Shown here: positions 4,131 through 55,293 of the stretch, piece by piece | How the letters are laid out: each line of letters opens with the position of its first letter | Numbering within the stretch: the first letter of the stretch is position 1 | Assembly (NCBI GenBank): GCA_009779135.1 | Contig: WREW01000002.1 | Coordinates: forward strand, 78,953-142,952 | From: Alphaproteobacteria bacterium | GTDB lineage: Bacteria; Pseudomonadota; Alphaproteobacteria; UBA9219 | Length of the DNA: 64,000 bases | Direction: 5' to 3' | Translations under genes and position numbers: made by a program | Notes under the pieces: generated by a model | What the model was told of the DNA's origin: nothing | What the model saw: the letters and a program-made list of their open reading frames with translations, nothing else | Databases searched by the model: none

Positions 4131-4232
4131 TGTCATTGCGAGGAAAGCCGCCGCAGGCGGCTTGACGCGGCAATCTCGGCGATGTTGCAGAGATTGCCAC
4201 GTCAGGCCTAAAGGCCTTCCTCGCAATGACAA
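4131..4232. repeat. family-1 palindromic miniature repeat (gtcattgcgagg ... cctcgcaatgac), copy 1
   Basis: ~100 bp nested palindrome in the dnaA/HAD intergenic region; same element recurs at 6332, 21978, 46461, 52067 and 55196. Confidence 0.75.
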
Positions 4233-4239
4233 TGTGATC

Positions 4240-4911
4240 TCAGAATACAAATCCAAGATCGCGCACGGCTTCCCTGATTTCGCTAAAATCATTGACCGTC
4301 CGCATGGTGCCGGAGGCTTCGAAAGGCAAAGGCTGGCCGTGCGTTATTAAAATATAGGGCATGCCGGCGCGGAAAGCAGCGGTGGCGTCGCGCGGGCCGT
4401 CGCCGATGAAAAGGCTTCCCTCAACGCTTTCCCCCAAAGCCGCAAGCGCGCCGAGCAAATGGCCCGGGTTGGGTTTATGAACCTGAAAGGTATCGCCGCC
4501 CGCAATAAAGTCAAAATAACGCGCAAGGCCGAGCTTTTCCAAAAGATCTTTGGCCTGAACCTCGCTGTTGTTGGTGCATAGGCCGATTTTAATGCCTTGA
4601 TCCTTCAGCGCGCGCAGGATTTCGACCACGCCTGCGACAATCTGCGCCGGATCCGGCAGCGTATGGCGGTGGAAGAGGATAAACTTTTTGACATAAGGAA
4701 AAATGTCTTCGGAAGGCATGCCTCCTGTCGCCTTGAGCGCTTTTTCGACAAAGCTCATAAGCCCGTCATCATAGATGGCTCTGGCCTGAGGCTCAGGCAA
4801 GGGCGGGCGGCCCAGATCAGCCAGCAAAAGCGTAAGGCTTTGCTGCATATCATAAAACGAATCCACCAAAGTGCCCTCAAGATCAAAAAGGACAGCTTTT
4901 AAAGGTTGCAT
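4240..4911 (-). CDS. HAD-superfamily hydrolase (phosphoglycolate phosphatase-like)
   Basis: 223 aa; DxD motif (VLFDLEGTL) at the N-terminus; HAD motifs II-IV. Confidence 0.7.
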   Translation of the reverse strand: MQPLKAVLFDLEGTLVDSFYDMQQSLTLLLADLGRPPLPEPQARAIYDDGLMSFVEKALKATGGMPSEDIFPYVKKFILFHRHTLPDPAQIVAGVVEILRALKDQGIKIGLCTNNSEVQAKDLLEKLGLARYFDFIAGGDTFQVHKPNPGHLLGALAALGESVEGSLFIGDGPRDATAAFRAGMPYILITHGQPLPFEASGTMRTVNDFSEIREAVRDLGFVF

Positions 4912-4981
4912 GACCTAACCTCGCGCCTTAAAAAGATATAGTCCTCTTAGGATGAAACAGAAGATGAAGGGAATCAAGCAA

Positions 4982-6325
4982 ATGAATCTGGCCTGCCTTA
5001 TTCTTGCCGCCGGTAAGGGCGAGCGGATGCGCTCGGAAACGCCGAAGGTCATGCATCCTGTTGCGGGGCTGCCTATGATGACGCATGTGCTCAAGGCCTG
5101 CGAGGGCCTTAAAGCTGATAAAATCATTGTTGTTATCGGGCCGGATCAAGACCAGATCGCGCGCGCCGCCGCCCCTTATCCCTGCGCGATACAAAAAGAG
5201 CGGCTGGGAACCGGCGATGCCGTGCGGGCGGCGCGTGATATGCTGGCCGGTTTTGAAGGGCTTGTTCTGGTTGTTTTCGGCGATGCGCCTCTTTTAAGAC
5301 CGGAAACTTTGGAAAGCCTTGTTCAGCGCCAGCGTGAGTCCGGCGCCGCTCTGGTGGTCGGCGGGTTTACGCCGGAGGATCCTGCCTCTTATGGCCGTCT
5401 TGTTGTGGACGAAATGGGGCAGCTTTTGGCTATTGTCGAGGCCGCAGACGCAGGCGAGGCCCAGCGCGCCATCGGTTTGTGCAATGGCGGGGGAATGTTG
5501 TTTGAAGCGCGGCATATGTGGACTTTGCTTGACAAGGTCGGAAACAACAACAGCAAACAGGAATATTACCTGACCGACTGCGTGAAGATCGCCAATCAGG
5601 AAGGGCTTAAAGTCTCTGTGGCCCTGCTTGAAGCCGAGGATCTGGAGGGCGCCAATACGCGCCTCCAACTGGCCGGCCTTGAGCAGCTGATGCAAAAGCG
5701 TTTGCGCGCGCGGCATATGATGGCGGGCGTCACGATGATTGATCCTGAAAGCGTGACATTGGCGGCAGATACGGTGCTTGGCTATGATGTGACGATTGAG
5801 CCTTGCGTCTTTTTCGGCACTGGCGTTGTTGTCGGCGATCATGTTCATATTCGCGCTTTTTCACATCTTGAGCAGGCTGTGATCGAGCCGCGCGCGGTGA
5901 TCGGCCCCTTTGCGCGCATAAGACCCGGAAGCGTGATCGGCACAGCGGCACGGATCGGCAATTTTGTTGAAATCAAAAACAGCGCCATCGGCGCAGGCGC
6001 GAAAGTCAATCATCTTTCTTATATCGGCGATGCCTCGGTCGGGATGCAAAGCAATATCGGGGCAGGGACTATTACCTGCAATTATGACGGCTTCAACAAA
6101 ATGCGCACGGATATCGGCGCCGGCACGTTTGTGGGATCGAACAGCACTTTGGTTGCACCTCTTTCTTTGGGTGACGGCGTTTATATCGCCGCAGGCAGTA
6201 CCATCACGCAGGATGTGCCGACAGATTCTTTGGCCGTGGCGCGGGAAAGACAGACCAACAATGCCGGATGGGCCGGTCGTTTCCGTGAATCGCAAAGCAA
6301 GATTAAGCCGGTCGGTCGGGCTTAA
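4982..6325 (+). CDS. glmU: bifunctional UDP-GlcNAc pyrophosphorylase / GlcN-1-P N-acetyltransferase
   Basis: LILAAGKGERM nucleotidyltransferase motif; C-terminal left-handed beta-helix hexapeptide repeats. Confidence 0.9.
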   Translation: MNLACLILAAGKGERMRSETPKVMHPVAGLPMMTHVLKACEGLKADKIIVVIGPDQDQIARAAAPYPCAIQKERLGTGDAVRAARDMLAGFEGLVLVVFGDAPLLRPETLESLVQRQRESGAALVVGGFTPEDPASYGRLVVDEMGQLLAIVEAADAGEAQRAIGLCNGGGMLFEARHMWTLLDKVGNNNSKQEYYLTDCVKIANQEGLKVSVALLEAEDLEGANTRLQLAGLEQLMQKRLRARHMMAGVTMIDPESVTLAADTVLGYDVTIEPCVFFGTGVVVGDHVHIRAFSHLEQAVIEPRAVIGPFARIRPGSVIGTAARIGNFVEIKNSAIGAGAKVNHLSYIGDASVGMQSNIGAGTITCNYDGFNKMRTDIGAGTFVGSNSTLVAPLSLGDGVYIAAGSTITQDVPTDSLAVARERQTNNAGWAGRFRESQSKIKPVGRA

Positions 6326-6331
6326 ATAAAT

Positions 6332-6428
6332 TGTCATTGCGAGGCGGGCCGCAAGGCCCAACGAAGCAATCTCGGCAATATCGCAGGGATTGCCGCGTCA
6401 GGCCTAAAGGCCTTCCTCGCAATGACAG
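6332..6428. repeat. family-1 palindromic miniature repeat, copy 2
   Basis: gtcattgcgagg...cctcgcaatgacag between glmU and carD. Confidence 0.75.
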
Positions 6429-6478
6429 TGGGGGGCGGGCTTCGCCGGCTTTTCTGTCAATGACAATGATGGCGCTTT

Positions 6479-6988
6479 CTAAGCGGCTTTCTTTTCCTTG
6501 GCCAGAACGCCTTCCAGTTTGGCGGTGGCTTTGGTTTGGTCGATTTTTTCGACAGCGGCGAGTTCGCGGGCGAGGCGTTCAAGCGCAGCTTGATAAATCT
6601 GACGTTCGCTGTAGGAATGTTCGGGCTGGTCAACGCCGCGATGCAAATCGCGCACGACTTCCGCAATCGAAACCGGATCGCCCGAGTTGATTTTGGATTC
6701 ATATTCCTGCGCCCGACGGCTCCACATCACGCGGCGAACTTTGGATTTTCCCTGCAGGGTTGATAAAGCTTCCTTGATGCGATCGCGCGAGCTGAGACGC
6801 CGCAGGCCCGAGGTCTTTGCCTTGACCACAGGAACTTTAAGACGCATGCGGTCATGCTCGAACATGATCGCGTAAAGCAGGACTTCCTGTCCGCCTACAT
6901 CAAAACTATCAATGCCTTCAACGCGGCCTACCCCATGGGCGGGGTAAACGACAAAATCACCCTTTTTAAACTCTAATTTCTCGGCCAT
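6479..6988 (-). CDS. carD: CarD-family transcriptional regulator
   Basis: 169 aa; FKKGDFVVYPAHGVGRVEGI RNA-polymerase-interacting domain typical of CarD/CdnL. Confidence 0.8.
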   Translation of the reverse strand: MAEKLEFKKGDFVVYPAHGVGRVEGIDSFDVGGQEVLLYAIMFEHDRMRLKVPVVKAKTSGLRRLSSRDRIKEALSTLQGKSKVRRVMWSRRAQEYESKINSGDPVSIAEVVRDLHRGVDQPEHSYSERQIYQAALERLARELAAVEKIDQTKATAKLEGVLAKEKKAA

Positions 6989-7205
6989 GTCCGTATCGCT
7001 CCTTTTATAACGCGGGTTTGGATATCAAAGAGGCAAGAATGCCACTCCCATCAAAACTTCTATTCTTGTATACCATTTTTTAGGGAATATTACAAAGCTT
7101 TCGTAGGAGTATCGTTAAGATTGTTATAAATCAATACGTTAAAAAGCGCTATGGTTAACGCTGAACATACCGGATCGTTAACATATGGAAACTTTCGGGG
7201 TAGAA

Positions 7206-8171
7206 TCAGGCTTGGGCAGCCGGAATCAGGGCTGGGGCCTCCTGCCAGACCCAGGCCGTTTCATCGGCAAAGAGCGCACGCAAAAGCTTGTTATGCATGG
7301 TGTGGCCGCCGCAAGAGCCTTTGAAAAGGCCCCGTATAGGCGCGCCGGCCAAAAACAGGTCGCCGATGGCATCCAGAAGTTTATGCCGGACAAACTCATC
7401 CGCAAAGCGCAGGCCGCCTTCATTAACCACAGTTTCATCACGCACAACAATCGCGTTGTCGAGCGAGCCGCCGCGCATAAAGCCCAGAGCGCGCATTTTT
7501 TCTACATCATCATAAAAGCCGAACGTGCGCGCGCGGCTGATCTCATTCTTAAATCCGTTTTGCGAGAGTGTAAAAGCGTAGCGCTGCGTTTGAATCAAAG
7601 CGCTTGCAAAGCTGATCGAAACATCAAACTGACTTTCTTCCGCAGGTAAAAGCGCAACATGCTTGCCGTCCGCTTTCACCTCAACAGGTTTAAGCACAAC
7701 AAGCTCACGACGCGGCGCGTCCTGCACCATCACGCCGGCCATATCAATCAGGAAAACAAAGGAATCCGCGCTGCCGTCCATAATGGGGACTTCGGGGCCA
7801 TCGACTTCGACAATGACATTGTCAACATCCGCTGCGCGCAGCGCCGCCATAAGATGTTCAATCGTTGCAACCTTGCTGCCATATCGGTTGCCGATGACGG
7901 TGCAAAGTCGTGTTTCGACAACATTGTCCCACTGCGCTTTGATACTGCGCGCGCCGTTTTTGAGATCCGTGCGGACAAAGACAATGCCTGTATCCGGTTC
8001 AGCCGGTAAAAGGCGCAGCGTGGCGCTTTCGCCCGCATGCACGCCGATTCCGGTGCACTGCACCGTACCGCGCAGAGTTTTTTGCCGCGCGGGTGTTAAC
8101 AATGCGCTTGCATGCAGCCCTTGGGGCGCCGTAGAACATGAAGCGGTAACGGGGGTATTTTGTATAAGCAT
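7206..8171 (-). CDS. lpxC: UDP-3-O-acyl-N-acetylglucosamine deacetylase
   Basis: 321 aa; LpxC two-domain architecture; conserved HxxxD-type motif (HKLLDAIGDL) near the C-terminus. Confidence 0.85.
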   Translation of the reverse strand: MLIQNTPVTASCSTAPQGLHASALLTPARQKTLRGTVQCTGIGVHAGESATLRLLPAEPDTGIVFVRTDLKNGARSIKAQWDNVVETRLCTVIGNRYGSKVATIEHLMAALRAADVDNVIVEVDGPEVPIMDGSADSFVFLIDMAGVMVQDAPRRELVVLKPVEVKADGKHVALLPAEESQFDVSISFASALIQTQRYAFTLSQNGFKNEISRARTFGFYDDVEKMRALGFMRGGSLDNAIVVRDETVVNEGGLRFADEFVRHKLLDAIGDLFLAGAPIRGLFKGSCGGHTMHNKLLRALFADETAWVWQEAPALIPAAQA

Positions 8172-8382
8172 AGGACTTTCTTTATTTATGAACCACGCCT
8201 ACTGATACCCGCAAGCCGCCCAAAGGGGAAATCAAGACTTATTACATTTTGTTACAGTCTCCTGAAAACACGGAAATAAGCTGGACAAGGCATCGTATAT
8301 TCTTTAACTTTTGCTTAGTAAACTAGGCTTACAAAAGTTTTTAGCCTTTATTTGCTTATTCAACCGGCGTAGAGGGATGGGG

Positions 8383-8961
8383 ATGATTTCAAAGCCTTTT
8401 TACCGCAGAATGCGCGGTTTTACACTGACCGAAGCGGCTATTGTCCTTGGTGTTGTCGGTGTTCTTTTGGCTGCCATATGGGTGGCCGCGGCGGCTTTGT
8501 ACAGCAGCTCGCGCATATCCACCTCAGGAAAACAGATTTTGCAGATTGCGCAGGCAACACGCGTTATGCATGCTCTGACTCAGTCCGTAGATCCGGCGCT
8601 TACGGCTGCGGATCTGGCCAAGGCCGGCGCTATCCCGAGGGATCTGGTTCAGACCTCCACAGATCCGATCCAGATCATCAATATCTGGGATGGCGCGGTG
8701 GAGGTGGTCGCCGCCAATCACCAGAGCGGCCCCAATCGCGCTTTTACCGTGACTTTCAAGAAGGTTCCGCGTGAGGCGTGCTCCCAGCTTCTTATGTGGC
8801 AAACGGGCAGGGACCGCGATCCGGGCCTTTTTGAGGCCGGCGCCAATGGCGTGCTTTTGGCGGAGATGCCCACTTCGTTGACTGAGGTCAATTCCATCTG
8901 CAACAAGCTCCCCACTGAGGGGTATAATGAGGTATTTTTTACTTTTTCTTTGAAGGTTTGA
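8383..8961 (+). CDS. type IV pilin / pseudopilin-like protein
   Basis: short basic leader ending in G followed by FTLTEAAIVLGVVGVLLAAIW (prepilin peptidase cleavage/methylation motif); no pilus assembly genes nearby. Confidence 0.6.
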   Translation: MISKPFYRRMRGFTLTEAAIVLGVVGVLLAAIWVAAAALYSSSRISTSGKQILQIAQATRVMHALTQSVDPALTAADLAKAGAIPRDLVQTSTDPIQIINIWDGAVEVVAANHQSGPNRAFTVTFKKVPREACSQLLMWQTGRDRDPGLFEAGANGVLLAEMPTSLTEVNSICNKLPTEGYNEVFFTFSLKV

Positions 8962-8967
8962 TGGGGC

Positions 8968-9010
8968 TACCCTTCTACCCAACCCTCCCCCGCAAGGGGG
9001 GAGGGCTAGA
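8968..9010. terminator. GC-rich hairpin (family-3 element) placed as a bidirectional terminator between the pilin gene and rnpB
   Basis: ccctcccccgcaagggggggagggc palindrome immediately 3' of both convergent genes. Confidence 0.45.
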
Positions 9011-9014
9011 GGTA

Positions 9015-9397
9015 GGCCAGATGGTCTGTAAGCCGGATTTTGTCTCTTTTCAGAGGACGGCCATTCATCTAGGCGGGATGTTGCCATCGCCGCTCATGCG
9101 ACCTACCCGAACCTGCCTGCCGTGACGAAAGCGGCTTTTGGTCTAGCCAAAAATGCGGTTCCTGTTTGGTCTTGCTCCCGATGGGGTTTTCCAGCCCTTT
9201 ATGTTGCCATAAAGGCGGTGCGCTCTTACCGCACCTTTTCACCCTTGCCGTGCCTGAAAGCGCGGCGGTTTTACTTTTCTGTGGCACTTTCCCTGGGGTC
9301 GCCCCCGCCGGCCATTAACCGGCATCGTTTCGTCTGGAGTCCGGACTTTCCTCTCCCTTAGCCAAAGGCAAGGCAGCGGCCATCCGACCATCTGGTT
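9015..9397 (-). ncRNA. rnpB: RNase P RNA, bacterial type A
   Basis: read on the minus strand: P1 helix ccagatggtc/gaccatctgg; P4 signature GGAAAGUCCGGACUCCA; AGGGAAAGUGCCACAGAAA; GGUAAGAGCGCACCGC; ACAGAACCCGGCUUA-like 3' region. Confidence 0.8.
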
Positions 9398-9588
9398 TCT
9401 TTCTTTTAGCATGGTTTTCGCAAAAGTTAACTATATATTACGGGGCCAAGGCTTCAGGCATGGTGTATTTTATGTTACAGTTCGGGTTCCATAGCCCCCT
9501 CAAGCCAAAAAAATGCTTACGATTTTGCGGAATAGCTGGTATAATTTCCCCTCGTTAAGCCCATTTTTTCAAGTCACAGGAGAGTTTC

Positions 9589-10674
9589 ATGACATCCTTA
9601 CGCACACTCCGCCTTGCTGCGGCTACGATCGCGCTTTTGGCGCCTCTTTCCGCGCATGCGGCTGTTCCCGATGGCTGGTATCTCGGCGCCAACGGGAATC
9701 TTGGTTTTCAAAACACGGCTGACAGCAAGCTGGATGGCGAAACCAACAAGGTCGGCTTTAGAACAGGCTGGGGTGTCGGCGGTTATGGCGGCTACGGTCT
9801 GGGCAACGGCATCCGCGTAGAGGGTGAAGTCGCTTACCGCAATTCGCAAGTTAACAAGGTTACGGGCGTAGGTGCCGGTACAGCCGGTGGCGGTATCCGC
9901 AACACAGCCCTGATGGGCAATGCGCTGTATGAGTATGATACGCGCACACGCATTACGCCCTATATCGGCGCCGGTGCTGGTGTTTCCTTTGTGAAGGCGA
10001 ACAACATGCGCACCATCAATACGGCTGAGATTCGCAGCAAAAAAACAGCTTTTGCCTATCAAGGGATTGCCGGTTTTGCTCTCAATCTTGAAGGCGGATG
10101 GGACTTTACGGCTGATTACCGCTATTTCGCCACGCCTGACGTGAAGTTCAAGGCCGACACGGGCGGACGGGCGACAACGGAGAACTCATCGCACAATTTG
10201 ATGCTCGGCATTCGCTATGTCTTTGACCGGCCCAGAGCGCCTGAGCCACGGGTGGAGGAACCTGTTCCTATGCCACCGCCGCCTCCGGCTGTGACTATGC
10301 CTGTGCCTCAACCGGTGATGGCACCGGCTGTTGCGCCGATTCCGCAGAATTACATGGTCTTTTTTGACTTTGACAAATCCGTTATCACGGCTGAGGCCGA
10401 GCGGATTATCGCCTCTGCGGCTGAAAGCTTCCGTGCCGGTAACTATGTCCGCCTGATTGTAACGGGGCACACGGATACGATGGGCACGGCCAGATATAAC
10501 CAAGCTCTTTCCGAGCGCCGTGCTGCTGCCGTCAAGGCCGCTTTCATACGCCACGGCATTCCGGCGAGCGATATTACACCCAGAGGTGTCGGAAAGAACG
10601 AACTTATGATCCCGACAGCCGATCAAGTGCGTGAAGCTCAAAACCGCCGCGCTGAAATCGTGATGCAAAGGTAG
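9589..10674 (+). CDS. OmpA-family outer membrane protein (beta-barrel plus Pro-rich linker plus OmpA C-terminal domain)
   Basis: signal peptide; Gly-rich beta-barrel N-terminal half; PPPP linker; OmpA peptidoglycan-binding motif NQALSERRA...RRAEIV. Confidence 0.8.
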   Translation: MTSLRTLRLAAATIALLAPLSAHAAVPDGWYLGANGNLGFQNTADSKLDGETNKVGFRTGWGVGGYGGYGLGNGIRVEGEVAYRNSQVNKVTGVGAGTAGGGIRNTALMGNALYEYDTRTRITPYIGAGAGVSFVKANNMRTINTAEIRSKKTAFAYQGIAGFALNLEGGWDFTADYRYFATPDVKFKADTGGRATTENSSHNLMLGIRYVFDRPRAPEPRVEEPVPMPPPPPAVTMPVPQPVMAPAVAPIPQNYMVFFDFDKSVITAEAERIIASAAESFRAGNYVRLIVTGHTDTMGTARYNQALSERRAAAVKAAFIRHGIPASDITPRGVGKNELMIPTADQVREAQNRRAEIVMQR

Positions 10675-10689
10675 ATTTTCGCAAAACGA

Positions 10690-10727
10690 AAAACGCCGCT
10701 CTGTCAAAAGAGCGGCGTTTTTTTTTG
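10690..10727 (+). terminator. rho-independent terminator
   Basis: aaaacgccgctct-gtcaaa-agagcggcg followed by a T9 run. Confidence 0.65.
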
Positions 10728-10825
10728 CCTTTTTACGGTAGAGCTTCTTGATTTTTCTTTAAAAATGAACAAACATAAAAGGAAGAAGGTTTGATTTAAA
10801 AGCCAATTTAAAGAAAGGAAATCTT

Positions 10826-11905
10826 ATGACCGACAAAACATGGGAAACGTTGTTTTTAGAAATGCGGGAAATTGCTGAACGGGGAAATGCCAAAGCGCAA
10901 TTTAATTTAGGTATCATGTATGCTACGGGTCAGGGCGTGAAACAGGATGATGCTCTGAACGTGAAATGGAATCGCAAGGCCGCCACGCAGGGATATTCCG
11001 ATGCGCAATTTAATTTAGGCTGCATGTATTTTGAAGGCCTTGGCGTAAAGCAAAACTCTGTTCAGGCCATGAAATGGTGGAATCGGGCGGCCAAGCAGGG
11101 ACATGCTGAAGCGCAGCACAATTTAGGAAATGCGTATGCCGAGGGCAAAGATGTAGCGCAAGATTACGGCAAGGCCGCAAAATTGTGGCTCAAAGCGGCT
11201 GAACAGGGCGTTGCTAACGCACAGGTCTCTTTAGGCGGGTGCTATGCCAGTGGTCAGGGTGTAGAGCAAAATTATGCGCATGCGGCAGCATGGTGGAGTC
11301 TGGCGGCTGAGCGAGGACATCCTGCCGCTCAATATCATTTCGGCATTTTGTATGCCAGCGGCCAAGGCGTGCCGCAAGACCAGCACAAGGCGATAAAATG
11401 GATGATTCGCGCTGCCGAGCAGGGGCATGCTGAAGCACAGGCTGTTTTGTTTTTGGAAACGCAAAAAGATGCCCTGCAAGGGATTGACGACGCACAATGT
11501 GCGGTAGGCATGATGTATGCTCAAGGCCAAGGCGTGGCGAAAGACGAAGCGCAGGCCATAGCGTGGTGGCTCAAGGCCGCCGCGCAGGGAAATGCCGAAG
11601 CGCAATTTAATTTAGGCGGCAGCTATGCCAAAGGCTTTGGCGTGGAGCAAGACGACATCGAGGCAAAGAAATGGTTCCTTCAAGCTGCCGAGCAGGGACA
11701 TGGTGACGCGCAAGTTAATTTGGGTTTGATGTATATTCATGGTCGCGGCGGCCCGCAAGACGTACCTCAAGCCATGGATTGGTGGATCAAGGCTGCCGCG
11801 CAAGACCATCCTGTCGCGCTGAGCCTTATAAACAACCTTTTACATGCGCAACGTCCCGACTACGAACCCGATCAAAGCAAAGAATCTGATCTGCGCTACA
11901 ATTAA
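10826..11905 (+). CDS. Sel1-repeat (TPR-like) protein
   Basis: ~9 tandem 36-aa Sel1 repeats (AxxWxxKAAEQGxAxAQxNLGxMY); C-terminal tail RPDYEPDQSKESDLRYN. Confidence 0.8.
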   Translation: MTDKTWETLFLEMREIAERGNAKAQFNLGIMYATGQGVKQDDALNVKWNRKAATQGYSDAQFNLGCMYFEGLGVKQNSVQAMKWWNRAAKQGHAEAQHNLGNAYAEGKDVAQDYGKAAKLWLKAAEQGVANAQVSLGGCYASGQGVEQNYAHAAAWWSLAAERGHPAAQYHFGILYASGQGVPQDQHKAIKWMIRAAEQGHAEAQAVLFLETQKDALQGIDDAQCAVGMMYAQGQGVAKDEAQAIAWWLKAAAQGNAEAQFNLGGSYAKGFGVEQDDIEAKKWFLQAAEQGHGDAQVNLGLMYIHGRGGPQDVPQAMDWWIKAAAQDHPVALSLINNLLHAQRPDYEPDQSKESDLRYN

Positions 11906-12004
11906 GTCCTTCTTTAGAATAGGGGATTGTGGGGGTTTTCGGTTCTTTTGCTATCGTAAGGCGTGTGGTAGTCTAGTACAGACAATTTAAAGAAAGGAAA
12001 TCTT

Positions 12005-14094: not shown

Positions 14095-14110
14095 CGAAAG
14101 GACTCTTGTC

Positions 14111-18840: not shown

Positions 18841-18863
18841 AACATGGCGTTTTTCCCCTTTAT

Positions 18864-18966
18864 GTCATCCTCGGGCAACCGCAAAGCGGTTGAACCGGGG
18901 ATCTGACGTTAGCACCTAGCTTCAGATCCCCGGGCTCTTGCTTCGCAAGCCCCGAGGATGACAAGA
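18864..18966. repeat. family-2 palindromic miniature repeat (gtcatcctcgg ... ccgaggatgac), copy a
   Basis: ~100 bp imperfect palindrome; further copies at 38405 and 39394, plus a fragment at 55156. Confidence 0.7.
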
Positions 18967-21967: not shown

Positions 21968-21977
21968 GATTCTGATG

Positions 21978-22124
21978 CTGCCGAGATTGCCGCGTCAGTC
22001 CGCCTGCGGCGGCTTTCCTGCCAATGACAGTTTTTTCTTGTCATTGCGAGGAAGGCCGTAAGGCCTGACGCGGCAATCTCTGTATTGATGTTGCGGGAAT
22101 TACTTCGTTCCTCACAATGACAAG
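21978..22124. repeat. family-1 repeat, rearranged/composite copy 3
   Basis: partial inverted half (gagattgccgcgtcag ... ccaatgacag) followed by a full gtcattgcgagg...cctcacaatgacaag unit. Confidence 0.65.
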
Positions 22125-36608: not shown

Positions 36609-36684
36609 GGGCCTGTAGCTCAGCTGGGAGAGCGCATCGTTCGCAATGATGAGGTCGTCGGTTCGATCCCGATCAGGTCCACCA
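36609..36684 (+). tRNA. tRNA-Ala (anticodon CGC)
   Basis: cloverleaf folds by eye; G3:U70 alanine identity pair; anticodon loop TTCGCAA; encoded 3' CCA. Confidence 0.85.
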
Positions 36685-38404: not shown

Positions 38405-38516
38405 CTTGTCATCCTCGAGGCTTGCGAAGCAAGCTCTCGGGGATCTGACACTTGGAATGATGCTCTGGCGTCAAATCCCCGGGTCAATCGCTGCGCGATT
38501 GCCCGAGGATGACAAT
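38405..38516. repeat. family-2 palindromic repeat, copy b
   Basis: cttgtcatcctcgagg ... gcccgaggatgacaat. Confidence 0.7.
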
Positions 38517-39393: not shown

Positions 39394-39512
39394 CTTGTCA
39401 TCCTCGGGGCTTGCGAAGCAAGAGCCCGGGGATCTGACATCAGAGCATCGTTTTACCGTCAGATCCCCGTGCTCTTGTCTGCCTACCAGCAGACAAGCCA
39501 CGAGGATGACAA
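39394..39512. repeat. family-2 palindromic repeat, copy c
   Basis: cttgtcatcctcgggg ... cacgaggatgacaag. Confidence 0.7.
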
Positions 39513-44700: not shown

Positions 44701-44704
44701 TCCC

Positions 44705-46436: not shown

Positions 46437-46460
46437 GTCGCCTCCCCATCTAGCCCCTCT

Positions 46461-46561
46461 TGTCATTGCGAGGAAGGCCGCCGCAGGCGGATTGACGCGG
46501 CAATCTCTTCAACATCGCCGAGATTGCCGCGTCAGGCCTAAAGGTCTTCCTCGCAATGACA
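46461..46561. repeat. family-1 palindromic repeat, copy 4
   Basis: followed by a family-3 hairpin agctctccccctcgcgggggagggctttg at 46572..46600. Confidence 0.75.
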
Positions 46562-46605
46562 GGGTTTTTAAGCTCTCCCCCTCGCGGGGGAGGGCTTTGT
46601 TCAAA

Positions 46606-47259: not shown

Positions 47260-47270
47260 GTTTTTCCTCC

Positions 47271-47600: not shown

Positions 47601-47613
47601 AAGTCAACTCCTT

Positions 47614-48027: not shown

Positions 48028-48292
48028 AAATCCACACTCCTTTCGGGTCTATGCGACCAGCCGCTGGTTTGAGACCGTCTCAAAAACATCAGCCGCACCG
48101 GTCAAGCCGAACGTCAAGGCGTCCGGCAAGGAGGTTTACAGGCGCTTTCTTAGCTCTAAAAGGCGGGGTATGCAAGAGAAAGCTTTTATAACCCCCCTTG
48201 CAGGGGCGGGCCTATAGGAAAGCCACTTGTCCGAGGCGGCTAAAGCGGTTAAGTTGCCCGCAATTCTTGATCCTTTAACGGGAGGGGTGCCC

Positions 48293-50992
48293 ATGTCCAC
48301 ACAAACAAAATGGGTTTATTCGTTCGGAGACGGCCATGCTGAAGGGCGCGCGGATATGCGCAATCTGCTGGGCGGCAAAGGGGCCGGTCTTGCGGAAATG
48401 TGTATGCTGGGGCTGCCTGTTCCCTCGGGCTTTACTATCACAACGGACGTCTGCACCTATTTCTACGCGCATGACCGCCTTTATCCCGAAAGCTTGAAGG
48501 GTGAAGTAAATAACGCTCTTGCGGAGGTGGAAAAAGCGGTCGGCTGCGGCTTTGGCGATCCGGCCAATCCTTTGCTGCTTTCGGTGCGCTCCGGCGCGCG
48601 GGCGTCCATGCCCGGGATGATGGATACCATCCTTAATCTCGGCCTGAATAACGCGACCGTGGAAGGTCTTGCCAAAATCAGTCAGGATGCGCGTTTTGCT
48701 TATGACAGCTATCGCCGCTTTATTCAAATGTACAGCGCGGTGGTGCTTGATATTTCTCTGCACAAGTTCGAAGACATTATCGAAGACGTCAAGCGCGCGC
48801 GCGGGTTTGCGCTTGATACCGAGATGACGGCTCATGACTGGCGCGAGGTTGTCACGGCCTATCTTCAGATCGTGCAAAAAGAACGCGGCAAAGCCTTCCC
48901 GCAGGATGTTCATGAGCAGCTCTGGGGCGCCATCGGCGCGGTGTTTGGTTCTTGGATGAACCAGCGCGCGATTACTTACCGCCGCTTGAATGATATTCCT
49001 GCGGACTGGGGCACGGCTGTTAATGTTCAGGCGATGGTGTTCGGCAATAAGGGCGAGGATTGCTGCACGGGCGTTGCCTTTACGCGCAACCCTTCCACGG
49101 GTGAGAACTCTTTTTACGGCGAATATCTTGTCAATGCTCAAGGTGAAGATGTTGTTGCCGGTATTCGCACGCCCCAGCATCTGACGATCAAGGGCAAAGA
49201 GGAAAATGACTCGGATCTTCTGGCCATGGAAGAGGTGATGCCGGATGTCTTTAAACAGCTTAATGATGTGCGCTTGAAACTGGAGTCACATTACCGCGAC
49301 ATGCAGGATATTGAGTTCACCGTCCAGCACGGCAAGCTTTATATGCTGCAAACCCGCACCGGAAAACGCACGGCGATGGCGGCTTTGCGGATTGCGGTTG
49401 AAATGGTGAAAGAAGGCACAATCGGCAAGGAAGAGGCTATTAAGCGTATCGAGCCTTCTTCATTGGATCAGCTTTTGCACCCGACACTTGATCCCAAAGC
49501 TGAGCGGCAGGTGATTGCCAAGGGTCTGCCTGCTTCCCCGGGCGCGGCTTCAGGCATTGTTGTCTTTACGGCTGACGAGGCCGAGGATATGGCGGGCAAA
49601 GGCAGAAAAGTTATTCTCTGCCGCGTTGAAACAAGCCCCGAAGATATTCACGGCATGCATGCCGCGCAGGGTATCGTGACAAGTCGCGGCGGTATGACAA
49701 GTCATGCTGCTGTTGTGGCGCGCGGCATGGGGCGCGCCTGTGTCGCGGGCGCGGGCGAGCTTTCCATGGACTATGCCAAGGGCGAGATGCGCGTGAAGGA
49801 CATCATTGTTAAAGCGGGCGAGGCCATCACGATTGACGGCGCGACGGGCGAGATCATGCTGGGCGAAGTTCCTTCGGTACAGCCCGAGCTTTCCGGCGAT
49901 TTTGCGACTTTGATGCAGTGGGCCGACAGCGTGCGCACATTGAAAGTCCGCACCAATGCCGAAACGCCTTTGGATGCGCGCACAGCCGTCAAGTTCGGCG
50001 CCGAGGGCATCGGCCTTTGCCGCACGGAACACATGTTTTTTGATACAAGTCGCATCATTGCGATGCGCGAGATGATTTTGGCGGAAAACACGCAAGGGCG
50101 GCGCAAGGCTTTGGACAAGCTTTTGCCGATGCAACAAAAGGATTTTGAGGATCTCTTCACCATTATGGACGGGCTTCCTGTGACGATCCGCCTTCTGGAC
50201 CCGCCTTTGCATGAGTTCCTGCCCAAAACAAAAGCGGAAATCGAAGATGTCGCCAAATATGCCGGTGTCGATGTGGCGCAGGTTGAACGGCGCGCGGCGA
50301 TGCTGCATGAAACCAATCCCATGCTGGGGCATCGCGGATGTAGGCTCGGCATTTCTTATCCCGAGATTTCCGAGATGCAGGCGCACGCTATTTTCGGTGC
50401 CGTGATTGCCATGAAGAAACAGGGGAAAACTGTGCTTCCTGAAGTGATGATTCCTCTTGTCGCGCTGAAAAAGGAATTGGATATTCTGGCAAAAGTCGTC
50501 CACGATGCGGCGGATGCAATGATGAAGGAGTCCGGCATAAAGTTTGACTATATGGTCGGCACGATGATCGAGCTGCCGCGCGCGGCGCTGCGCGCCGGCG
50601 GGATTGCGCAGACGGCGGAGTTCTTCAGCTTCGGCACAAATGATCTGACTCAAACGACTTTCGGTTTAAGCCGCGATGACAGCGCGTCTTTCCTTCCTGA
50701 TTATTATAGAACGGGGATTATGGCGCTGGATCCGTTTGTCACCATCGACCAAGACGGCGTGGGCGAGCTTATCAAAATCGCCTCCGAACGGGGCCGCGCG
50801 ACACGCGAGGATCTCAAGCTCGGCATATGCGGCGAGCATGGCGGCGATCCGGCCTCTATCCGCTTTTGCCACAAGCTTGGTTTGAATTATGTGTCATGCT
50901 CGCCTTACCGCGTTCCTATTGCGCGTCTGGCGGCAGCGCAGGCCGCGATCGAAAATGACCGCGACGTTCAGGCGCGGCTTAACGCGGCGTAA
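48293..50992 (+). CDS. ppdK: pyruvate, phosphate dikinase
   Basis: KWVYSFGDG N-terminus; phosphohistidine domain (GGMTSHAAVVARGMG); PEP-utilising C-terminal domain. Confidence 0.9.
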   Translation: MSTQTKWVYSFGDGHAEGRADMRNLLGGKGAGLAEMCMLGLPVPSGFTITTDVCTYFYAHDRLYPESLKGEVNNALAEVEKAVGCGFGDPANPLLLSVRSGARASMPGMMDTILNLGLNNATVEGLAKISQDARFAYDSYRRFIQMYSAVVLDISLHKFEDIIEDVKRARGFALDTEMTAHDWREVVTAYLQIVQKERGKAFPQDVHEQLWGAIGAVFGSWMNQRAITYRRLNDIPADWGTAVNVQAMVFGNKGEDCCTGVAFTRNPSTGENSFYGEYLVNAQGEDVVAGIRTPQHLTIKGKEENDSDLLAMEEVMPDVFKQLNDVRLKLESHYRDMQDIEFTVQHGKLYMLQTRTGKRTAMAALRIAVEMVKEGTIGKEEAIKRIEPSSLDQLLHPTLDPKAERQVIAKGLPASPGAASGIVVFTADEAEDMAGKGRKVILCRVETSPEDIHGMHAAQGIVTSRGGMTSHAAVVARGMGRACVAGAGELSMDYAKGEMRVKDIIVKAGEAITIDGATGEIMLGEVPSVQPELSGDFATLMQWADSVRTLKVRTNAETPLDARTAVKFGAEGIGLCRTEHMFFDTSRIIAMREMILAENTQGRRKALDKLLPMQQKDFEDLFTIMDGLPVTIRLLDPPLHEFLPKTKAEIEDVAKYAGVDVAQVERRAAMLHETNPMLGHRGCRLGISYPEISEMQAHAIFGAVIAMKKQGKTVLPEVMIPLVALKKELDILAKVVHDAADAMMKESGIKFDYMVGTMIELPRAALRAGGIAQTAEFFSFGTNDLTQTTFGLSRDDSASFLPDYYRTGIMALDPFVTIDQDGVGELIKIASERGRATREDLKLGICGEHGGDPASIRFCHKLGLNYVSCSPYRVPIARLAAAQAAIENDRDVQARLNAA

Positions 50993-51985
50993 AGGCGGTT
51001 CGATAAAAATCGGGGTCTTTTATTCTTGTCTTGATTTGCTCTGGCGTCAGGCTATGTTTAAGTGCTATGGCGGTGGCCAAGCGACGGCAATCTTGATCTG
51101 AAAGGTTATTTAGGCCGCCTTTTTGAAGTTTTTTCAATATCGCTATCCCGTTGAAGATAGGGTTGTCGGCATGGATGATGGTGTTTACGTCATCGTAATT
51201 TTCCTGAAGCTTATAAAGCGTTCGCGCAACATGGGGCCAATTTTGACGTTTAATATGGGATAGAAGACTATTTGCCTCTTTCATGCTTTCATAAGTGTCG
51301 TGTTCGACAATGAATCTGCGGGGTACGCCATCATTCAGATCCGTTAAGAACGCAAGGACGTCTTCTACCAGCCTATCCGTGTTTTTGCCTAACTTCGCCA
51401 CTTTAATCATGGCATAAACATCGGCTATGTTTTCATTGAGATGTTTGCCGGCTTTTTCATTTTGATCTGTGTAGAAAAACTCATGAAACAACATATGGGG
51501 GGAGGTAGAATCGAGCAAGACAATAACATTGCTTTGATCAGCGGAAGCGTTGGGCATTTTCAATATAAGCGGGGTTTTAAAAATGCGGATAGGAAACTCG
51601 TTTCCGATTGAAGCTTGAAAAGCGCTTAAGCCCATGGACTTTGCTAGAAGTATCATGGACGCAAGTGTAGAAATCTTGTTGCGTGACATGGAAAGTTGTG
51701 CATCTTCCAAAATCCCACAAAGAAGAAAATGCTGGTCACCTGAAAGATTTGGCATTTTGCTGCCGTCAATAATGATGATCTTTTGTCTAGACGCTTTTCT
51801 ATCTCGGGTATATTCCGAAAGACTTCATTGACAGCCTTGTGCCAGTCGGATGTCGGGTTTTTCTCAGGGGACAGCGTGACATCATGAAAAGGCAGCCCCC
51901 TTCCCATAAGCGAAGGCAACCCAAATGTTACCGCCGCAGCCGCAATAACCGACCAATTTATTATCTTTTTAACGGAAGCTTTCAT
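50979..51985 (-). pseudogene. family-X paralog A, frameshifted and motif-degenerate
   Basis: signal-peptide exon (51985..~51770) and body (51755..50979) lie in different frames; 1-nt loss inside an A5 run; the HExxH equivalent is HEFFY. Confidence 0.6.
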
Positions 51986-52066
51986 GCCCGCATTGTACTT
52001 TTTTCTGCGAAGATTTCATTAGTTTTAATAGTTTCATTGTGAGTATGGTTATTTTTCCCTCTCTCT
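51986..52066 (-). promoter_or_regulatory. conserved family-X promoter module (copy for paralog A)
   Basis: GAAAAATAACCATA...GAAACTATTAAAA(C/G)TAATGAAA...; -10-like TACAAT. Confidence 0.5.
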
Positions 52067-52170
52067 TGTCATTGCGAGGAGGGCCGCCGCAGGCGGATTG
52101 ACGCGGCAATCTCGGCAACATCAAGAGCGCGATTGCCGCGTCAGGCCTTATGGCCTTCCTCGCAATGACA
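52067..52170. repeat. family-1 palindromic repeat, copy 5
   Basis: directly upstream of the paralog A promoter module. Confidence 0.75.
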
Positions 52171-52187
52171 AGTGGGGGGGGGCCGCG

Positions 52188-53507
52188 TTATTCCGGTGTG
52201 AGCTTGGGGATGGGGACTGTGACTGTGCTCTTGCTGGGCCTTTGTGCTTCTTCTTCTTTTATGCTTTCATTGGCGCGTATAGCCGGTTTAAATGCGGGAT
52301 TATTCGCTTCCGGATCGTCCTTATACCAATAGTAAGTCTTATTCCATGAATCTCTGGCATCCCCTTTTGGCACGTCGTCGCCAAGCGCGGCGTCTTTTAA
52401 ATCTTTGATCTGTTCCGGCGTCAGACTATGTGTGCTTGCTATAAGACCGGCTATGCGATGGCACGTTTTATCCGGAAGTTTTTCAAAACCGTTGTCTTTG
52501 AGTTCTTTCAATATCGCTTGCTTTTCCTGATCGTCGAAGGTAGGCTTATCGGCCTCGATTATGTTATAGCCCTTCTTGTTATTGTATTCTTCTTGAAGTC
52601 CAGAAAGGATTTTATCAACCCTGTCCCATTTTTTATGTTTAGCTTGTATACAAAAATCTTTCGTTACCGACAGGCTTTTATAGGCGTTGTAAGCTATAAA
52701 GTTGTCAGCCTTATCGGCAGCATTCGGATCGCTGTAGAGCTTGTTTCTAAAATTGTAAGTTGAACGCAGGATTCCATCTTCTGCTACTCCTAAGGTACTT
52801 ACGCCTAATTGCTCCATTTTAATCATGGCGTAAGATTCTGCCATATTTTCCTTGTGATTTGTTCGGAGGGACTGGAGCATTGCAGGCGTATTTTTATCGA
52901 TGTCGCCTGTAGGAGCATAAAAAACATTTAAGAAAGGATTGATCGTCTTATCCTGTCCGTCTATTTGTGTTGGAACCGACTGGGTTAAATGGCCAACCTC
53001 GTGAAACAGCGTCTGAATATTTTTCTTATCTACGACAACAACGCTGGTTCGATCTGAAAAGGGATTATCCTCAACCGAAGTTCCTAAAAAAGGTGTGGAA
53101 CGATAGTTTCCAATTGAAGTGCAAAAACCGCCCAAGTTTTTTTCTTCGACTTCAAGCAACGCGGCTGAAAGGCGGTTAATCTTGCCTTCCGCTATGGGAG
53201 CATTTGAGTTTTTTAGAACCTTGCTAAATCCATCATGTGACGGTTTTTCACCCTTCAAAGCTTCTTTTATTTTGCCATAGTCAAGAAAGACAACTTCTTG
53301 CCCTATCATCTTTTCCGTTTCGCCTTTATTCCGAAAGACTTCATTGACAGCTCTGCTCCATTCGGGGTTTTTATCAGGGAAGATCAGGATATCGTGAAGG
53401 GGGGCTTTTTCTGCAAGGGAAGGCGTTGCCAACAGCGTTGCCGAGGCCACCGCAAGGGCTGCCGATTTGATGCTTTTGGTTGCCATAGGTTTATCGTCGT
53501 TTTCCAT
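52188..53507 (-). CDS. family-X secreted HExxH protein, paralog B
   Basis: signal peptide; FHEVGHL; ENMAESYAMIKMEQLG; C-terminal ...STVTVPIPKLTPE; begins 8 bp after the paralog C stop. Confidence 0.7.
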   Translation of the reverse strand: MENDDKPMATKSIKSAALAVASATLLATPSLAEKAPLHDILIFPDKNPEWSRAVNEVFRNKGETEKMIGQEVVFLDYGKIKEALKGEKPSHDGFSKVLKNSNAPIAEGKINRLSAALLEVEEKNLGGFCTSIGNYRSTPFLGTSVEDNPFSDRTSVVVVDKKNIQTLFHEVGHLTQSVPTQIDGQDKTINPFLNVFYAPTGDIDKNTPAMLQSLRTNHKENMAESYAMIKMEQLGVSTLGVAEDGILRSTYNFRNKLYSDPNAADKADNFIAYNAYKSLSVTKDFCIQAKHKKWDRVDKILSGLQEEYNNKKGYNIIEADKPTFDDQEKQAILKELKDNGFEKLPDKTCHRIAGLIASTHSLTPEQIKDLKDAALGDDVPKGDARDSWNKTYYWYKDDPEANNPAFKPAIRANESIKEEEAQRPSKSTVTVPIPKLTPE

Positions 53508-53515
53508 GGCCTAGG

Positions 53516-55063
53516 CTATTGCGGTGTGAGTTTGGGGGTGGGAGCCGTGACTGTGCTCCTGCCGGCGGGTCTTTGCGGTTCGTCAAAGCTCGCCACCTTC
53601 AAAGGCTCCGCCGCCACGCCCAAAGGCTCCGCCGCTTTTTTTGCCGGTTCAAAAGCGGTGTTGTTGTCTTTATCCGCTACAGCGGCTTCTTGCGCTTCTT
53701 TTTTTATGCTTTCATGGGCAAGTATGGCCGGTTTAAATGCGGTGTTATTGTCTTTATCCACCACAGCGTCTCCTTGTTTAAGAAGGTCGTACGTGTCACT
53801 CCATGCTTTGGTGGCGGCCTTTCCTTGCGGCACCTTTCCCAAGGTTGCGTTGTCAAAATCGTTCATATCAGACAAAGACGGGCTATGCTTTGTTGCCAAA
53901 GCTGACGCAAGAGAAAGGCTGTCTTTGTCTGTAAGAGCATTCAGTCCACCTGTTTCTAACTTGGCAAAAATAGCTTGTCCATTGAAGGGATGTTTAACCT
54001 CGGATCGTGATTCCGTGTTGTCATAAGTTTCTTGAAGACCATCAAGCTTTGACTTAACATTATCCATTTTCCCGTTCTTAATATCGTCCAGAAGAGAGAT
54101 TGTCGCAAACAGAGTTTCATGGGTGTTATGCCCTTGGTACGACATCGGGAGTTCTTGACTCGTTGAGAGGTAAGTTGAGTCAAAAAGACGGGCTTGCGCT
54201 TGTTTAGTGGCAGCTGTGTAATTTCCTTTTTGCGCCATTTTAATCGCGGCGTAAGAATCTGACATATTTTCCTGGCGATTTTCCCGCAGCTTCCAAGCTT
54301 CACCTTTATTATCTGTTTTAGGGACTTTCATGAAAAACGCGGGTTCCTCTACTTCAGTATTGTAAAGATGCGCTTTTTCGTGAAATGCTGTAAAAGCGGC
54401 CGCTTCATCATATGGCTGTTTTACAAAATTAGAATCTGTTTTTGAAAAATCAACGCCTGTACCTTCGGGACAAGACAACCTCTCACGCCAAACAGTATTT
54501 CCGTCTTTGTTATTTTCACCGAACGCGACAAAAACTTTTATGTTGTTACCATCTCTGTCTTTTGTTGAAATAACACCAGAGTTGACCTGATCGAAAGAAG
54601 GGTCACATACTGGTTCGTATCCTATATCCTGTCTTAAATGTCTTCCTATACTAGCCGCGAGTATGGCACTCTCTCCCTTTTCCGCAGAAACGCCTGAATC
54701 CTCCAGAATGCCCTTTACGGCAGAGTCGTCGTTTTCCCTTTCACTTAAAATCTTTAAAATCTCATCTACGTCATGTTTTCCTGATTCCCCTTTGCCATGC
54801 GCCAGCGCGGCAGATCTTTTTTTCACTTCTCGCCCATCAATAAAATAAATCTTTTGTCCTATCGCCTGTTCTATTTCTTCTTTTTGAGAAACAATTTCTT
54901 TTTTAGCCTCATCCACCAAGGATATGGGCTTTACTGCGACAGGATTGTCGGGAATCTTTGCTGCTCCGGCAGGCAGCGGTAATAAGCTACATGCCGCTAC
55001 GGCTGTAGCGGCTGTCAGGTTTACTACCCTTTTGAGCAGGGGTTTTTTATCGTCGTTTTCCAT
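53516..55063 (-). CDS. family-X secreted HExxH protein, paralog C
   Basis: signal peptide; FHEKAHL; ENMSDSYAAIKMAQ; C-terminal ...STVTAPTPKLTPQ. Confidence 0.7.
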   Translation of the reverse strand: MENDDKKPLLKRVVNLTAATAVAACSLLPLPAGAAKIPDNPVAVKPISLVDEAKKEIVSQKEEIEQAIGQKIYFIDGREVKKRSAALAHGKGESGKHDVDEILKILSERENDDSAVKGILEDSGVSAEKGESAILAASIGRHLRQDIGYEPVCDPSFDQVNSGVISTKDRDGNNIKVFVAFGENNKDGNTVWRERLSCPEGTGVDFSKTDSNFVKQPYDEAAAFTAFHEKAHLYNTEVEEPAFFMKVPKTDNKGEAWKLRENRQENMSDSYAAIKMAQKGNYTAATKQAQARLFDSTYLSTSQELPMSYQGHNTHETLFATISLLDDIKNGKMDNVKSKLDGLQETYDNTESRSEVKHPFNGQAIFAKLETGGLNALTDKDSLSLASALATKHSPSLSDMNDFDNATLGKVPQGKAATKAWSDTYDLLKQGDAVVDKDNNTAFKPAILAHESIKKEAQEAAVADKDNNTAFEPAKKAAEPLGVAAEPLKVASFDEPQRPAGRSTVTAPTPKLTPQ

Positions 55064-55150
55064 GACCTTATTATACTATTTTTTTGTGAATCTTTTATTA
55101 CTTTTAATAGTTTCGCTTTAAATATGGTTATTTTTCATTAACTTATGTGA
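55064..55150 (-). promoter_or_regulatory. conserved family-X promoter module (copy for the C-B operon)
   Basis: TTAATGAAAAATAACCATATTTAAAGCGAAACTATTAAAAGTAATAAAAGATTCAC...AGTATAATAAGGTC then ATG. Confidence 0.55.
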
Positions 55151-55155
55151 TTTTC

Positions 55156-55293
55156 CTTGTCATTCTCGGGGCTTGCGGATGACGAGAGGGGAGATTGTCA
55201 TTGCGAGGAAGGCCTTCAGGCCTGACGCGGTAATCTCTGCAACATCGCCGAGATGGCGCCCGTTGGGCCTTGCGGCCCGCCTCGCAATGACAG
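55156..55293. repeat. composite repeat: family-2 fragment plus family-1 copy 6
   Basis: gtcattctcggggcttgcggatgacgag followed by gtcattgcgagg ... cctcgcaatgacag. Confidence 0.7.

Follow-up and report, generated by a model that had tools for sequence, protein, structure and literature searches.

What is a palindrome of about 100 bp that recurs along a bacterial chromosome, and how was it dispersed? The question is raised by a 64-kb stretch of DNA from an uncultured alphaproteobacterium (contig WREW01000002.1; the whole stretch is called the window here), which carries a nested palindrome of 84–104 bp in six full copies and one half copy. We conclude, at a probability of roughly 60%, that this element is a heads-out doublet of the repetitive extragenic palindromic (REP) type that a trans-acting activity disperses without duplicating the target site and that is tolerated for the most part in 3' spacers. 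On this reading, single copies are non-autonomous REP-type palindromic repeats, comparable to the REP doublets called REPINs.

Six copies of a nested palindrome in the window

With at most one mismatch allowed, the arm 12-mer GTCATTGCGAGG matched the window 12 times, always as inward-facing pairs (six in all); shuffled sequences are expected to give 0.34 matches, and none of 100 shuffles attained 12. Counts of the inner box GACGCGGCAATCTC paralleled those of the 12-mer. An nhmmer profile made from five copies recovered these with E values of 1e-26 to 1e-32, together with a degenerate sixth copy and the half copy (Table 1), and gave no match in the window beyond them. The profile also reveals an orientation, in which copies 3 and 6 are inverted relative to the other four.

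The terminal inverted repeats of the element are perfect over 13 bp, starting with TG and ending with CA. Besides this outer stem, the window copies contain a GCCGCC-GCA-GGCGGC or GGCC-loop-GGCC hairpin, a 14-bp stem formed by GACGCGGCAATCTC and GAGATTGCCGCGTC, and a GGCC-TAAA-GGCC hairpin. The first-pass annotation, which had been made from the letters of the window, listed six copies; all six exist where it placed them, and the anatomy that it described is correct. Its "rearranged" copy at 21978 is real but consists of two parts, a half element and, after it, a full degenerate element. The spurious open reading frames (ORFs) that it ascribed to the repeat are likewise borne out, as the peptide RDCRVRPKGLPRND is a direct translation of AGAGATTGCCGCGTCAGGCCTAAAGGCCTTCCTCGCAATGAC.

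The central 12-nt loop was observed in both orientations relative to the arms, as GCGATGTTGC in copies 1 and 6 and as GCAACATCGC in copies 4 and 5, which suggests loop flipping or an exchange of arms through recombination between inverted arms.

Table 1. Positions of the repeat copies, their parts and the other features discussed
Feature	Sequence	Position	Strand	Length (bp)	E value	Remarks
Copy 1	window	4131–4231	+	101	2e-32	fills the spacer between convergent dnaA and HAD-hydrolase genes, 8 nt from each stop codon
Copy 1, left end	window	4131–4143	+			TGTC tag and box A (ATTGCGAGG); pairs with 4219–4231
Copy 1, left-arm mini-hairpin	window	4147–4161	+			GCCGCC-GCA-GGCGGC, GNA triloop
Copy 1, central hairpin	window	4164–4203	+			box B GACGCGGCAATCTC, 12-nt loop GGCGATGTTGCA, then GAGATTGCCACGTC
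Copy 1, right-arm mini-hairpin	window	4204–4217	+			AGGCC-TAAA-GGCCT
Copy 1, right end	window	4219–4231	+			CCTCGCAATGACA
Copy 2	window	6332–6427	+	96	1e-28	begins 6 nt past the glmU stop codon; convergent with carD
Half copy	window	21973–22029	-		7e-11	one arm and central arm; directly 3' of the lepA stop codon
Copy 3	window	22039–22122	-	84	1e-14	degenerate: right arm without mini-hairpin, mismatch at one end
Copy 4	window	46461–46561	+	101	5e-32	45 nt downstream of rplI (- strand)
Copy 5	window	52067–52170	+	104	7e-30	18 nt downstream of orphan gene 52188–53507 (- strand)
Copy 6	window	55196–55292	-	97	1e-26	E value 2e-16 on the + strand; inverted relative to copies 1, 2, 4 and 5; 20 nt downstream of ccrM-like methyltransferase gene 55312–56448 (- strand)
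In-frame copy in uvrB	L014	781–890
In-frame copy in mnmA	L046	7385–7489
In-frame copy in radical SAM gene	L054	1815–1901
Bacteroidota copy	L001	7266–7346
Bacteroidota copy	L029	6145–6225
Bacteroidota copy	L036	2400–2480
Bacteroidota copy	L053	984–1064
dnaA	window	2659–4122	+
RNase P RNA, class A	window	9013–9395	-			311 bits
tRNA-Ala(CGC)	window	36609–36684	+

Each element consists of two structured arms

Predicted RNA folds of the window copies range from -37 to -76 kcal/mol, with z scores of -6.4 to -11.8, on both strands. The predicted DNA fold, at -44 kcal/mol (z about -11), is a four-way junction, formed in the best copies by the outer stem, two small GC-rich hairpins and the central hairpin.

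To place these copies within a family, we used a scan of one genome per species with the pattern TGTCATTGCGAGG-N55-85-CCTCGCAATGACA, which gave at least 120 stretches; the family-wide counts of arms, flanks and neighbors given below cover these listed stretches, with 132 copies in the flank test. Every element was split into two arms, each read from its TGTC end. Along an arm follow the TGTC tag, ATTGC, GAGG(A), a variable module, (GA)CGNN, GCAAT and a CYC tail. Each element is a heads-out doublet, in which two stem-loop modules face each other across a loop of 12–17 nt, so that one strand by itself, whether DNA or RNA, is expected to form the four-way junction. The module stem is made of the 5 bp of ATTGC/GCAAT, and the purine-rich internal loop (GAGG(A)…(GA)CGNN) is conserved. 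In Bacteroidota the variable module is as short as two bases, which leaves G-GAA-C; at the other extreme it forms hairpins of 4–9 bp of unrelated sequence.

Among the matches listed, 59 of the 99 distinct apical modules of at least 12 nt contain a perfect stem of at least 4 bp, again with unrelated sequences, and 77 heterodimers stand against 43 homodimers; the window copies are all heterodimers. Because heterodimers prevail, the apical parts cannot pair across the arms and must fold on themselves. (Structure pairs were obtained by custom counts, because MAFFT misaligned the variable mini-hairpins.) The stem within an arm covaries in sister families, as ATTGC/GCAAT, ATTCC/GGAAT, ATTCT/AGAAT, ATTTC/GAAAT and ATCCTCGGG/CCCGGGGAT, while the purine-rich loop GAGG…CGAA is constant across the sister families found at the same loci, in F. 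gilvum and in the window. Apical triloops have a polarity as well: among the matches listed, 24 of 42 are GNA on the strand that carries the head at its 5' side, and 2 are the complementary TNC. GNA loops of the d(GCGAAGC) type form exceptionally stable DNA mini-hairpins.

Heterodimers, compensatory changes and polarity together indicate that the arm itself, beyond the whole palindrome, is a structural unit. The asymmetric features lie on opposite strands in the two arms, so that any one transcript presents just one arm in its "correct" form. A function in RNA alone is therefore less favored than a role for single-stranded DNA (ssDNA), folded on either strand, or for the extrusion of a cruciform. 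A kink-turn or sarcin-ricin reading of the GA/GAA internal loop was also considered and rejected, as the strand registers do not fit.

Copies lie at the 3' ends of genes

As a general rule, the location of the element follows the 3' ends of genes and not accessory DNA. Among the matches listed, the flanking genes are arranged ++ in 26 cases, -- in 24, convergently in 22 and divergently in 9, and the element lies at most 8 nt from a stop codon in 30 of 102 cases (gaps in the window: 8, 8 and 6 nt). The intergenic setting described by the first-pass annotation holds for all window copies, but none of them lies between divergent genes, a setting that it had also listed. No window copy scores as an intrinsic terminator. 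A separate terminator-like GC hairpin with a T run is present right after copy 2 (6428–6446, + strand) and beside copy 4 (46573–46594, + strand), indicating that the element sits in the 3' untranslated region and is not itself the terminator. The copies that lie in frame inside genes (Table 1) are found within or between the Pfam domains of long ORFs and leave the reading frame unbroken.

These positions bring up the possibility that the repeat is primarily a functional transcribed RNA, for example a 3'-untranslated-region stabilizer, a terminator helper or a protein-binding RNA, which is maintained by selection and copied by recombination or gene conversion and not by transposition. Its predicted RNA folds are very stable, it stands between stop codon and terminator-like hairpin at glmU, it is depleted between divergent genes, and its loops are conserved while its stems covary. 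However, the copies occur in both orientations relative to transcription, and the purine-rich and GNA features are on opposite strands in the two arms. Moreover, copies are found in frame in uvrB, mnmA and a radical SAM gene, and they come and go at a conserved operon junction. No Rfam family corresponds to the repeat: a scan of the window at gathering thresholds gave no match at the copies, and the hits obtained otherwise were sub-threshold matches to generic hairpins. Plant microRNA (miRNA) precursors that resembled one Bacteroidota copy (L001, 7258–7358; MIR6274 at 42 bits against a threshold of 80, MIR6032 at 32 and MIR844 at 31) were rejected because such sub-threshold scores reflect a generic resemblance among long hairpins. 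We therefore consider it unlikely that the repeat is primarily a functional RNA.

Copies are inserted without target-site duplication

Direct repeats at the flanks of 132 copies had a length of 1 nt in 22 cases, 2 nt in 7, 3 nt in 1 and 4 nt or more in 1, which is at or below chance. The flanks tend to prolong the palindrome, with a mean complementary run of 0.93 as against 0.39±0.07 in 1,000 shuffles, and several copies, such as the one in L087 (AAAACCGTC-element-GACGGTTTTT), are framed by the two halves of a terminator-like stem and take the place of its loop.

The spacer between fadA and acd in Flavobacterium provides an instance of presence and absence. Flavobacterium sp. 245 carries the element there (L061, 4122–4208), an uncultured Flavobacterium has a bare spacer of 27 nt from which the element is absent, and F. 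gilvum has a sister palindrome, TGTCATTCCGACGAAGGAGGAA…TTCCTCCTTCGTCGGAATGACA, in its stead. The element is thus an insertion and not an ancestral feature, in species too divergent for the exact junction to be read. Among the other Flavobacterium spacers at this position, three hold a 23S_rRNA_IVP (bAvd-like) gene and one holds an unrelated small ORF; L135 is not comparable, as its downstream genes differ and a CTP_transf_like gene follows the thiolase.

The fadA-acd junction (L131, L134, L136, L137 and L138) is an insertion hot spot, and a putAbiC gene was also seen upstream of fadA. F. gilvum has the one Y1_Tnp gene that was encountered, resembling the REP-associated tyrosine transposase (RAYT) (L134, 880–1341); the hairpins on either side of this gene are of the GTAG type and come from an unrelated REP family.

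No homolog of a Y1 transposase was found by phmmer with a RAYT query in the window or in the approximately 1.1 Mb around 130 copies, and no parent insertion sequence (IS) was found among the solo ends at 120 loci in the matches listed. These results bear on the view that the repeat is a classic miniature inverted-repeat transposable element (MITE), that is, an internally deleted IS that relies on a DDE transposase acting in trans for its cut-and-paste movement. The perfect 13-bp TG…CA terminal inverted repeats, the length of about 100 bp, the dispersal through intergenic DNA and the polymorphism at one site would all suit a MITE. In contrast, target-site duplications are absent from 132 copies, and neither a transposase nor a parent element with the same ends is present in the DNA surveyed around 130 copies. 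Independent swapping of arm modules and ends in tandem arrays are both atypical of MITEs, and conservation runs through the interior as well as the ends. A MITE in this strict sense is very unlikely. The label "MITE/REP-type" given by the first-pass annotation can be kept for its second half: the repeat is a dispersed, non-coding, transposase-less and structured element like REPs and Rickettsia palindromic elements (RPEs), but, with no duplications and no parent IS found around the copies surveyed, very probably not a DDE MITE.

The family is distributed across at least 18 phyla

The 13-nt ends TGTCATTGCGAGG…CCTCGCAATGACA together with the inner box CGAAGCAATC…GATTGCTTCG were found in at least 18 phyla, so that the copies are not restricted to the window, an outcome that the first-pass annotation had expected of a dispersed element. 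By record title, the hosts include Bacteroidota (among them cultured Mucilaginibacter, Flavobacterium and Hymenobacter), Rhodothermales, Chloroflexota, Alpha-, Beta- and Gammaproteobacteria, Desulfobacterota, Bdellovibrionales, Omnitrophota, several Patescibacteria, Gemmatimonadota, Verrucomicrobiota, Planctomycetota (Jettenia), KSB1, Caldithrix, Oscillospiraceae, Eubacteriales, Acidobacteriota, Nitrospiraceae and Melainabacteria. Box B, which was absent from the search pattern, reads CGAAGCAAT in 191 of 254 parsed arms among the matches listed and has the window variant CGCGGCAAT in 18. Many 8-kb loci hold two or more copies, at a density similar to that of the window. A metagenome scan for the subfamily of the window itself found three loci only.

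BLAST searches of plasmids and phages with a window copy gave no match. The canonical variant detected a few plasmid copies (Calothrix, Trichormus, Methylosinus, Methylocystis and Halomonas), none of them annotated; the copy on the plasmid of Methylosinus trichosporium OB3b has a CGTC tag and a CCAG tail. Viral contigs gave 4 matches in 2.9 million, which rules out carriage by phages as the rule.

Bacteroidota copies have minimal arms and an asymmetric, conserved central loop of about 33 nt, CGCGAACTTTGCAT…TGCG, in either orientation (examples in Table 1), which suggests loop content specific to the lineage. In Acetobacteraceae metagenome-assembled genomes (L066, 1–240; L084, 100–260), a terminal unit of 25–26 nt, made of a mini-hairpin half and CCTCGCAATGACA, is repeated in tandem 4–5 times, to one side of a central copy or to both, forming nested palindromes; slippage and repeated partial insertion are possibilities.

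The four ATTGC/GCAAT boxes of an element, arranged → ← … → ← and strongly conserved across phyla, might also be read in double-stranded DNA as half-sites for a chromosomal protein, such as a nucleoid protein, gyrase or recombinase, within a dyad symmetry that takes in non-self-complementary sequences. Yet the covariation of the boxes in sister families preserves pairing within the arm, pointing to a folded single strand; the mini-hairpins conserve structure and not sequence, and no candidate protein is known. Such a protein-binding or architectural site is a most improbable explanation.

Neighboring genes are ordinary

The window is core chromosome beside dnaA, with positive GC skew over most of its length, and probably lies just to one side of the replication origin. 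Four of the six copies flank core genes (dnaA/HAD, glmU/carD, lepA and rplI); copies 5 and 6 are the only ones that flank orphan genes. At the 120 other loci among the matches listed, the neighbors are ordinary metabolic genes. When 1,585 ORFs were clustered all against all and examined with Pfam, no neighboring protein family recurred beyond generic ABC-transporter components, aminotransferases, transketolases and kinases, and the genes inspected between paired copies were ordinary, with no partner gene among them.

That the copies are recombination or insertion hot spots at the borders of accessory cassettes is scarcely credible: the mutually inverted copies 5 and 6 bracket two paralogous orphan genes, copies 1 and 2 bracket the HAD-glmU pair, and inserts other than the repeat are likewise found in the fadA-acd spacer of Flavobacterium, where one copy lies, but most window copies flank core genes, the neighbors at 120 loci in the matches listed are ordinary housekeeping genes, and survival in 3' intergenic spacers explains the pattern more simply. 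The enrichment at accessory-gene borders proposed by the first-pass annotation was accordingly not found, and nothing in the analysis shows recombination mediated by the copies.

The two orphan genes between copies 5 and 6 (52188–53507 and 53516–55063, both on the - strand) encode adjacent paralogs with 28% identity (E 3e-31). Both proteins have signal-peptide-like N termini and an HExxH-like motif (FHEVGHL and FHEKAHL, respectively), and neither matched Pfam or NCBIfam.

The repeat resembles the CGTC-tagged REPs

The best match for the family is the superfamily of CGTC-tagged REPs (Di Nocera, De Gregorio & Rocco 2013, PMC3733652), which comprises CGTC-1 to CGTC-4 and includes dRS3 of Neisseria and RPE-4 and RPE-6 of Rickettsia. 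In these repeats the CGTC tag often changes to TGTC and may also be CCTC, stem positions 1 and 2 are A and T, and a short unpaired CCA tail follows (PMC3733652). They form inverted dimers, often heterodimers, with tags facing outward; they lie downstream of ORFs, with copies also inside replication and repair genes, and have no dedicated transposase (PMC3733652). The family described here shares the tag, which is TGTC in all window copies and CGTC in the Methylosinus OB3b plasmid copy, and a stem that starts with AT (ATTGC…GCAAT, with ATTCC, ATTCT, ATTTC and ATCC in sisters). It also shares the outward-tagged inverted dimers, the location downstream of ORFs, the in-frame copies in repair genes and the lack of a linked transposase. 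Its tails are CTC in 117 arms, CCC in 41, CGC in 36 and CCA in 6 among the matches listed, CCAG in the Methylosinus copy, and are paired in the doublet.

The family fits this superfamily but none of its four described families. CGTC-1 to CGTC-4 have a perfect stem of 8–9 bp with a loop of 4–5 nt, whereas the repeats here have a 5-bp stem, an internal loop and an inserted variable mini-hairpin. The peptides encoded differ (VIPAKAGI, VIPGLDPGI and VIPWLDHGI among others there, VIARS…/…ARND here), as does the spread, which is at least 18 phyla here and 5 for the published CGTC REPs. We found no name or description of the family. A literature search by ends, boxes and spurious peptides, which would miss descriptions given in figures only, returned unrelated primer matches and nothing that bears on the rhizobial RIME elements, and a search of newer work for a transposase linked to CGTC REPs found none. 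Thus, of the two parts of the question whether this is an already described family, the superfamily is known, but the repeat matches none of its named families.

A second, sister family of TGTC-headed doublets of about 100–115 bp, alike in architecture, is present in the window (18863–18963, 38407–38514 and 39396–39511). It has the form TGTC-ATCCTCGGG-(GCTTGC GAA GCAAG)-CCCGGGGAT-CTGAC…, with a CGTC-3-like stem, ATCC(C/T)CGGG, and an inserted mini-hairpin, and this stem ties the repeats of the window to the CGTC superfamily. A collapsed 33-nt remnant of it (55158–55190) adjoins copy 6.

With the REPIN/RAYT system the repeat has in common the inverted doublet of tagged hairpins, the absence of target-site duplication, the extragenic 3' location, a high copy number and lineage-specific subfamilies within a genome. 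It differs in its head (TGTC or CGTC, not GTAG), and no RAYT was found near any copy; moreover, REPIN sequences are normally lineage-specific, whereas the boxes here are the same across phyla. RPEs are likewise palindromic repeats of about 100 bp that lie between genes or in frame within them, but they are AT-rich, restricted to Rickettsia and of another sequence family, and the window copies are all intergenic. The MITEs Correia (Neisseria), ERIC/IRU, Nezha and Chunjie are similar in size, terminal inverted repeats and non-coding dispersal, and can be co-transcribed and folded; they differ in having target-site duplications and identifiable IS families, neither of which is seen here. Integron attC sites were rejected as a match, because the R''/R' core sites (RYYYAAC … GTTRRRY) are absent, the ends are TGTCATTGCGAGG/CCTCGCAATGACA, and the core genes on either side of the copies are in convergent or tandem arrangement.

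Discussion

Taken together, the doublet anatomy, the lack of target-site duplications and the 3' location are best explained by REP-type dispersal. By analogy with known REPs, copies would spread within genomes via ssDNA hairpins as intermediates, on which an enzyme encoded at another place would act in trans; an HUH/RAYT-like or another structure-specific nuclease is a candidate. New copies would survive mainly in the few nucleotides between stop codon and terminator. There a copy would be co-transcribed, and its very stable fold would probably act as a barrier to 3' exonucleases, as in other REPs. Where no more than about 15 nt separate the stop codon from the start of the element, terminating ribosomes may be disturbed as well, an idea mentioned for E. 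coli REPs (PMC12306157).

Several points weigh against this explanation. No mobilizing enzyme was found in the window or around the copies searched, and the ssDNA/HUH step is drawn by analogy; the proposed effect of a 3'-untranslated element on mRNA 3' ends likewise derives from REPIN/RAYT and E. coli REPs. For the minimal arms of 27 nt, the predicted DNA fold has a z score of about 0 and no stable hairpin, under nearest-neighbor models that leave sheared G·A pairs and GNA motifs unscored; the longer window arms reach -2.6. Orientation relative to transcription is mixed, and the better-folding strand is the + strand of the window in five of the six copies, whatever the direction of the genes, a bias that could simply reflect GC skew. 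The location statistics rest on crude ORF calls, and as the 13-nt ends were part of the search pattern, their conservation in many phyla is a consequence of the search itself. The RAYT model, whose REP families are normally lineage-specific, would not lead one to expect identity across phyla, and the shared boxes are the one feature ill-suited to a lineage-specific REPIN model. Finally, the best match to GlmU in the protein collection has 65% identity; with no close relative of the window organism at hand, its mobility there is judged from other hosts.

The identity of the boxes allows a broader and more tentative proposal, which we think possible but doubtful: TGTC/CGTC doublets may form one pan-bacterial superfamily, comprising the ATTGCGAGG family, its sisters, the published CGTC REPs, dRS3 and some RPEs, whose tag and purine-rich loop would be recognized by a single, widely conserved ssDNA enzyme other than RAYT. 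If so, REPs would have a second system of replication, independent of the first and far broader.

As a kind of element the repeat is ordinary; it is the family itself for which no name or description was found. Its copies yield spurious ORFs (…VIARS…, …RDCRVRPKGLPRND), so that recognizing it improves annotation in many phyla. It also breaks short-read assemblies, as illustrated by the sole other contig with an identical CarD (L121, Logan contig SRR10512950_182869, 2607 bp), which ends inside the repeat, with an arm at 2580–2607. To our knowledge, CGTC-type REPs are a large class of bacterial palindromic repeats without a known mobilizing enzyme. Invariant boxes in at least 18 phyla make the enzyme question tractable, since comparing the presence of the family with that of protein families could nominate the enzyme. 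By analogy with E. coli REPs, the nearness of the copies to stop codons suggests that the family may have widespread effects on mRNA 3' ends.

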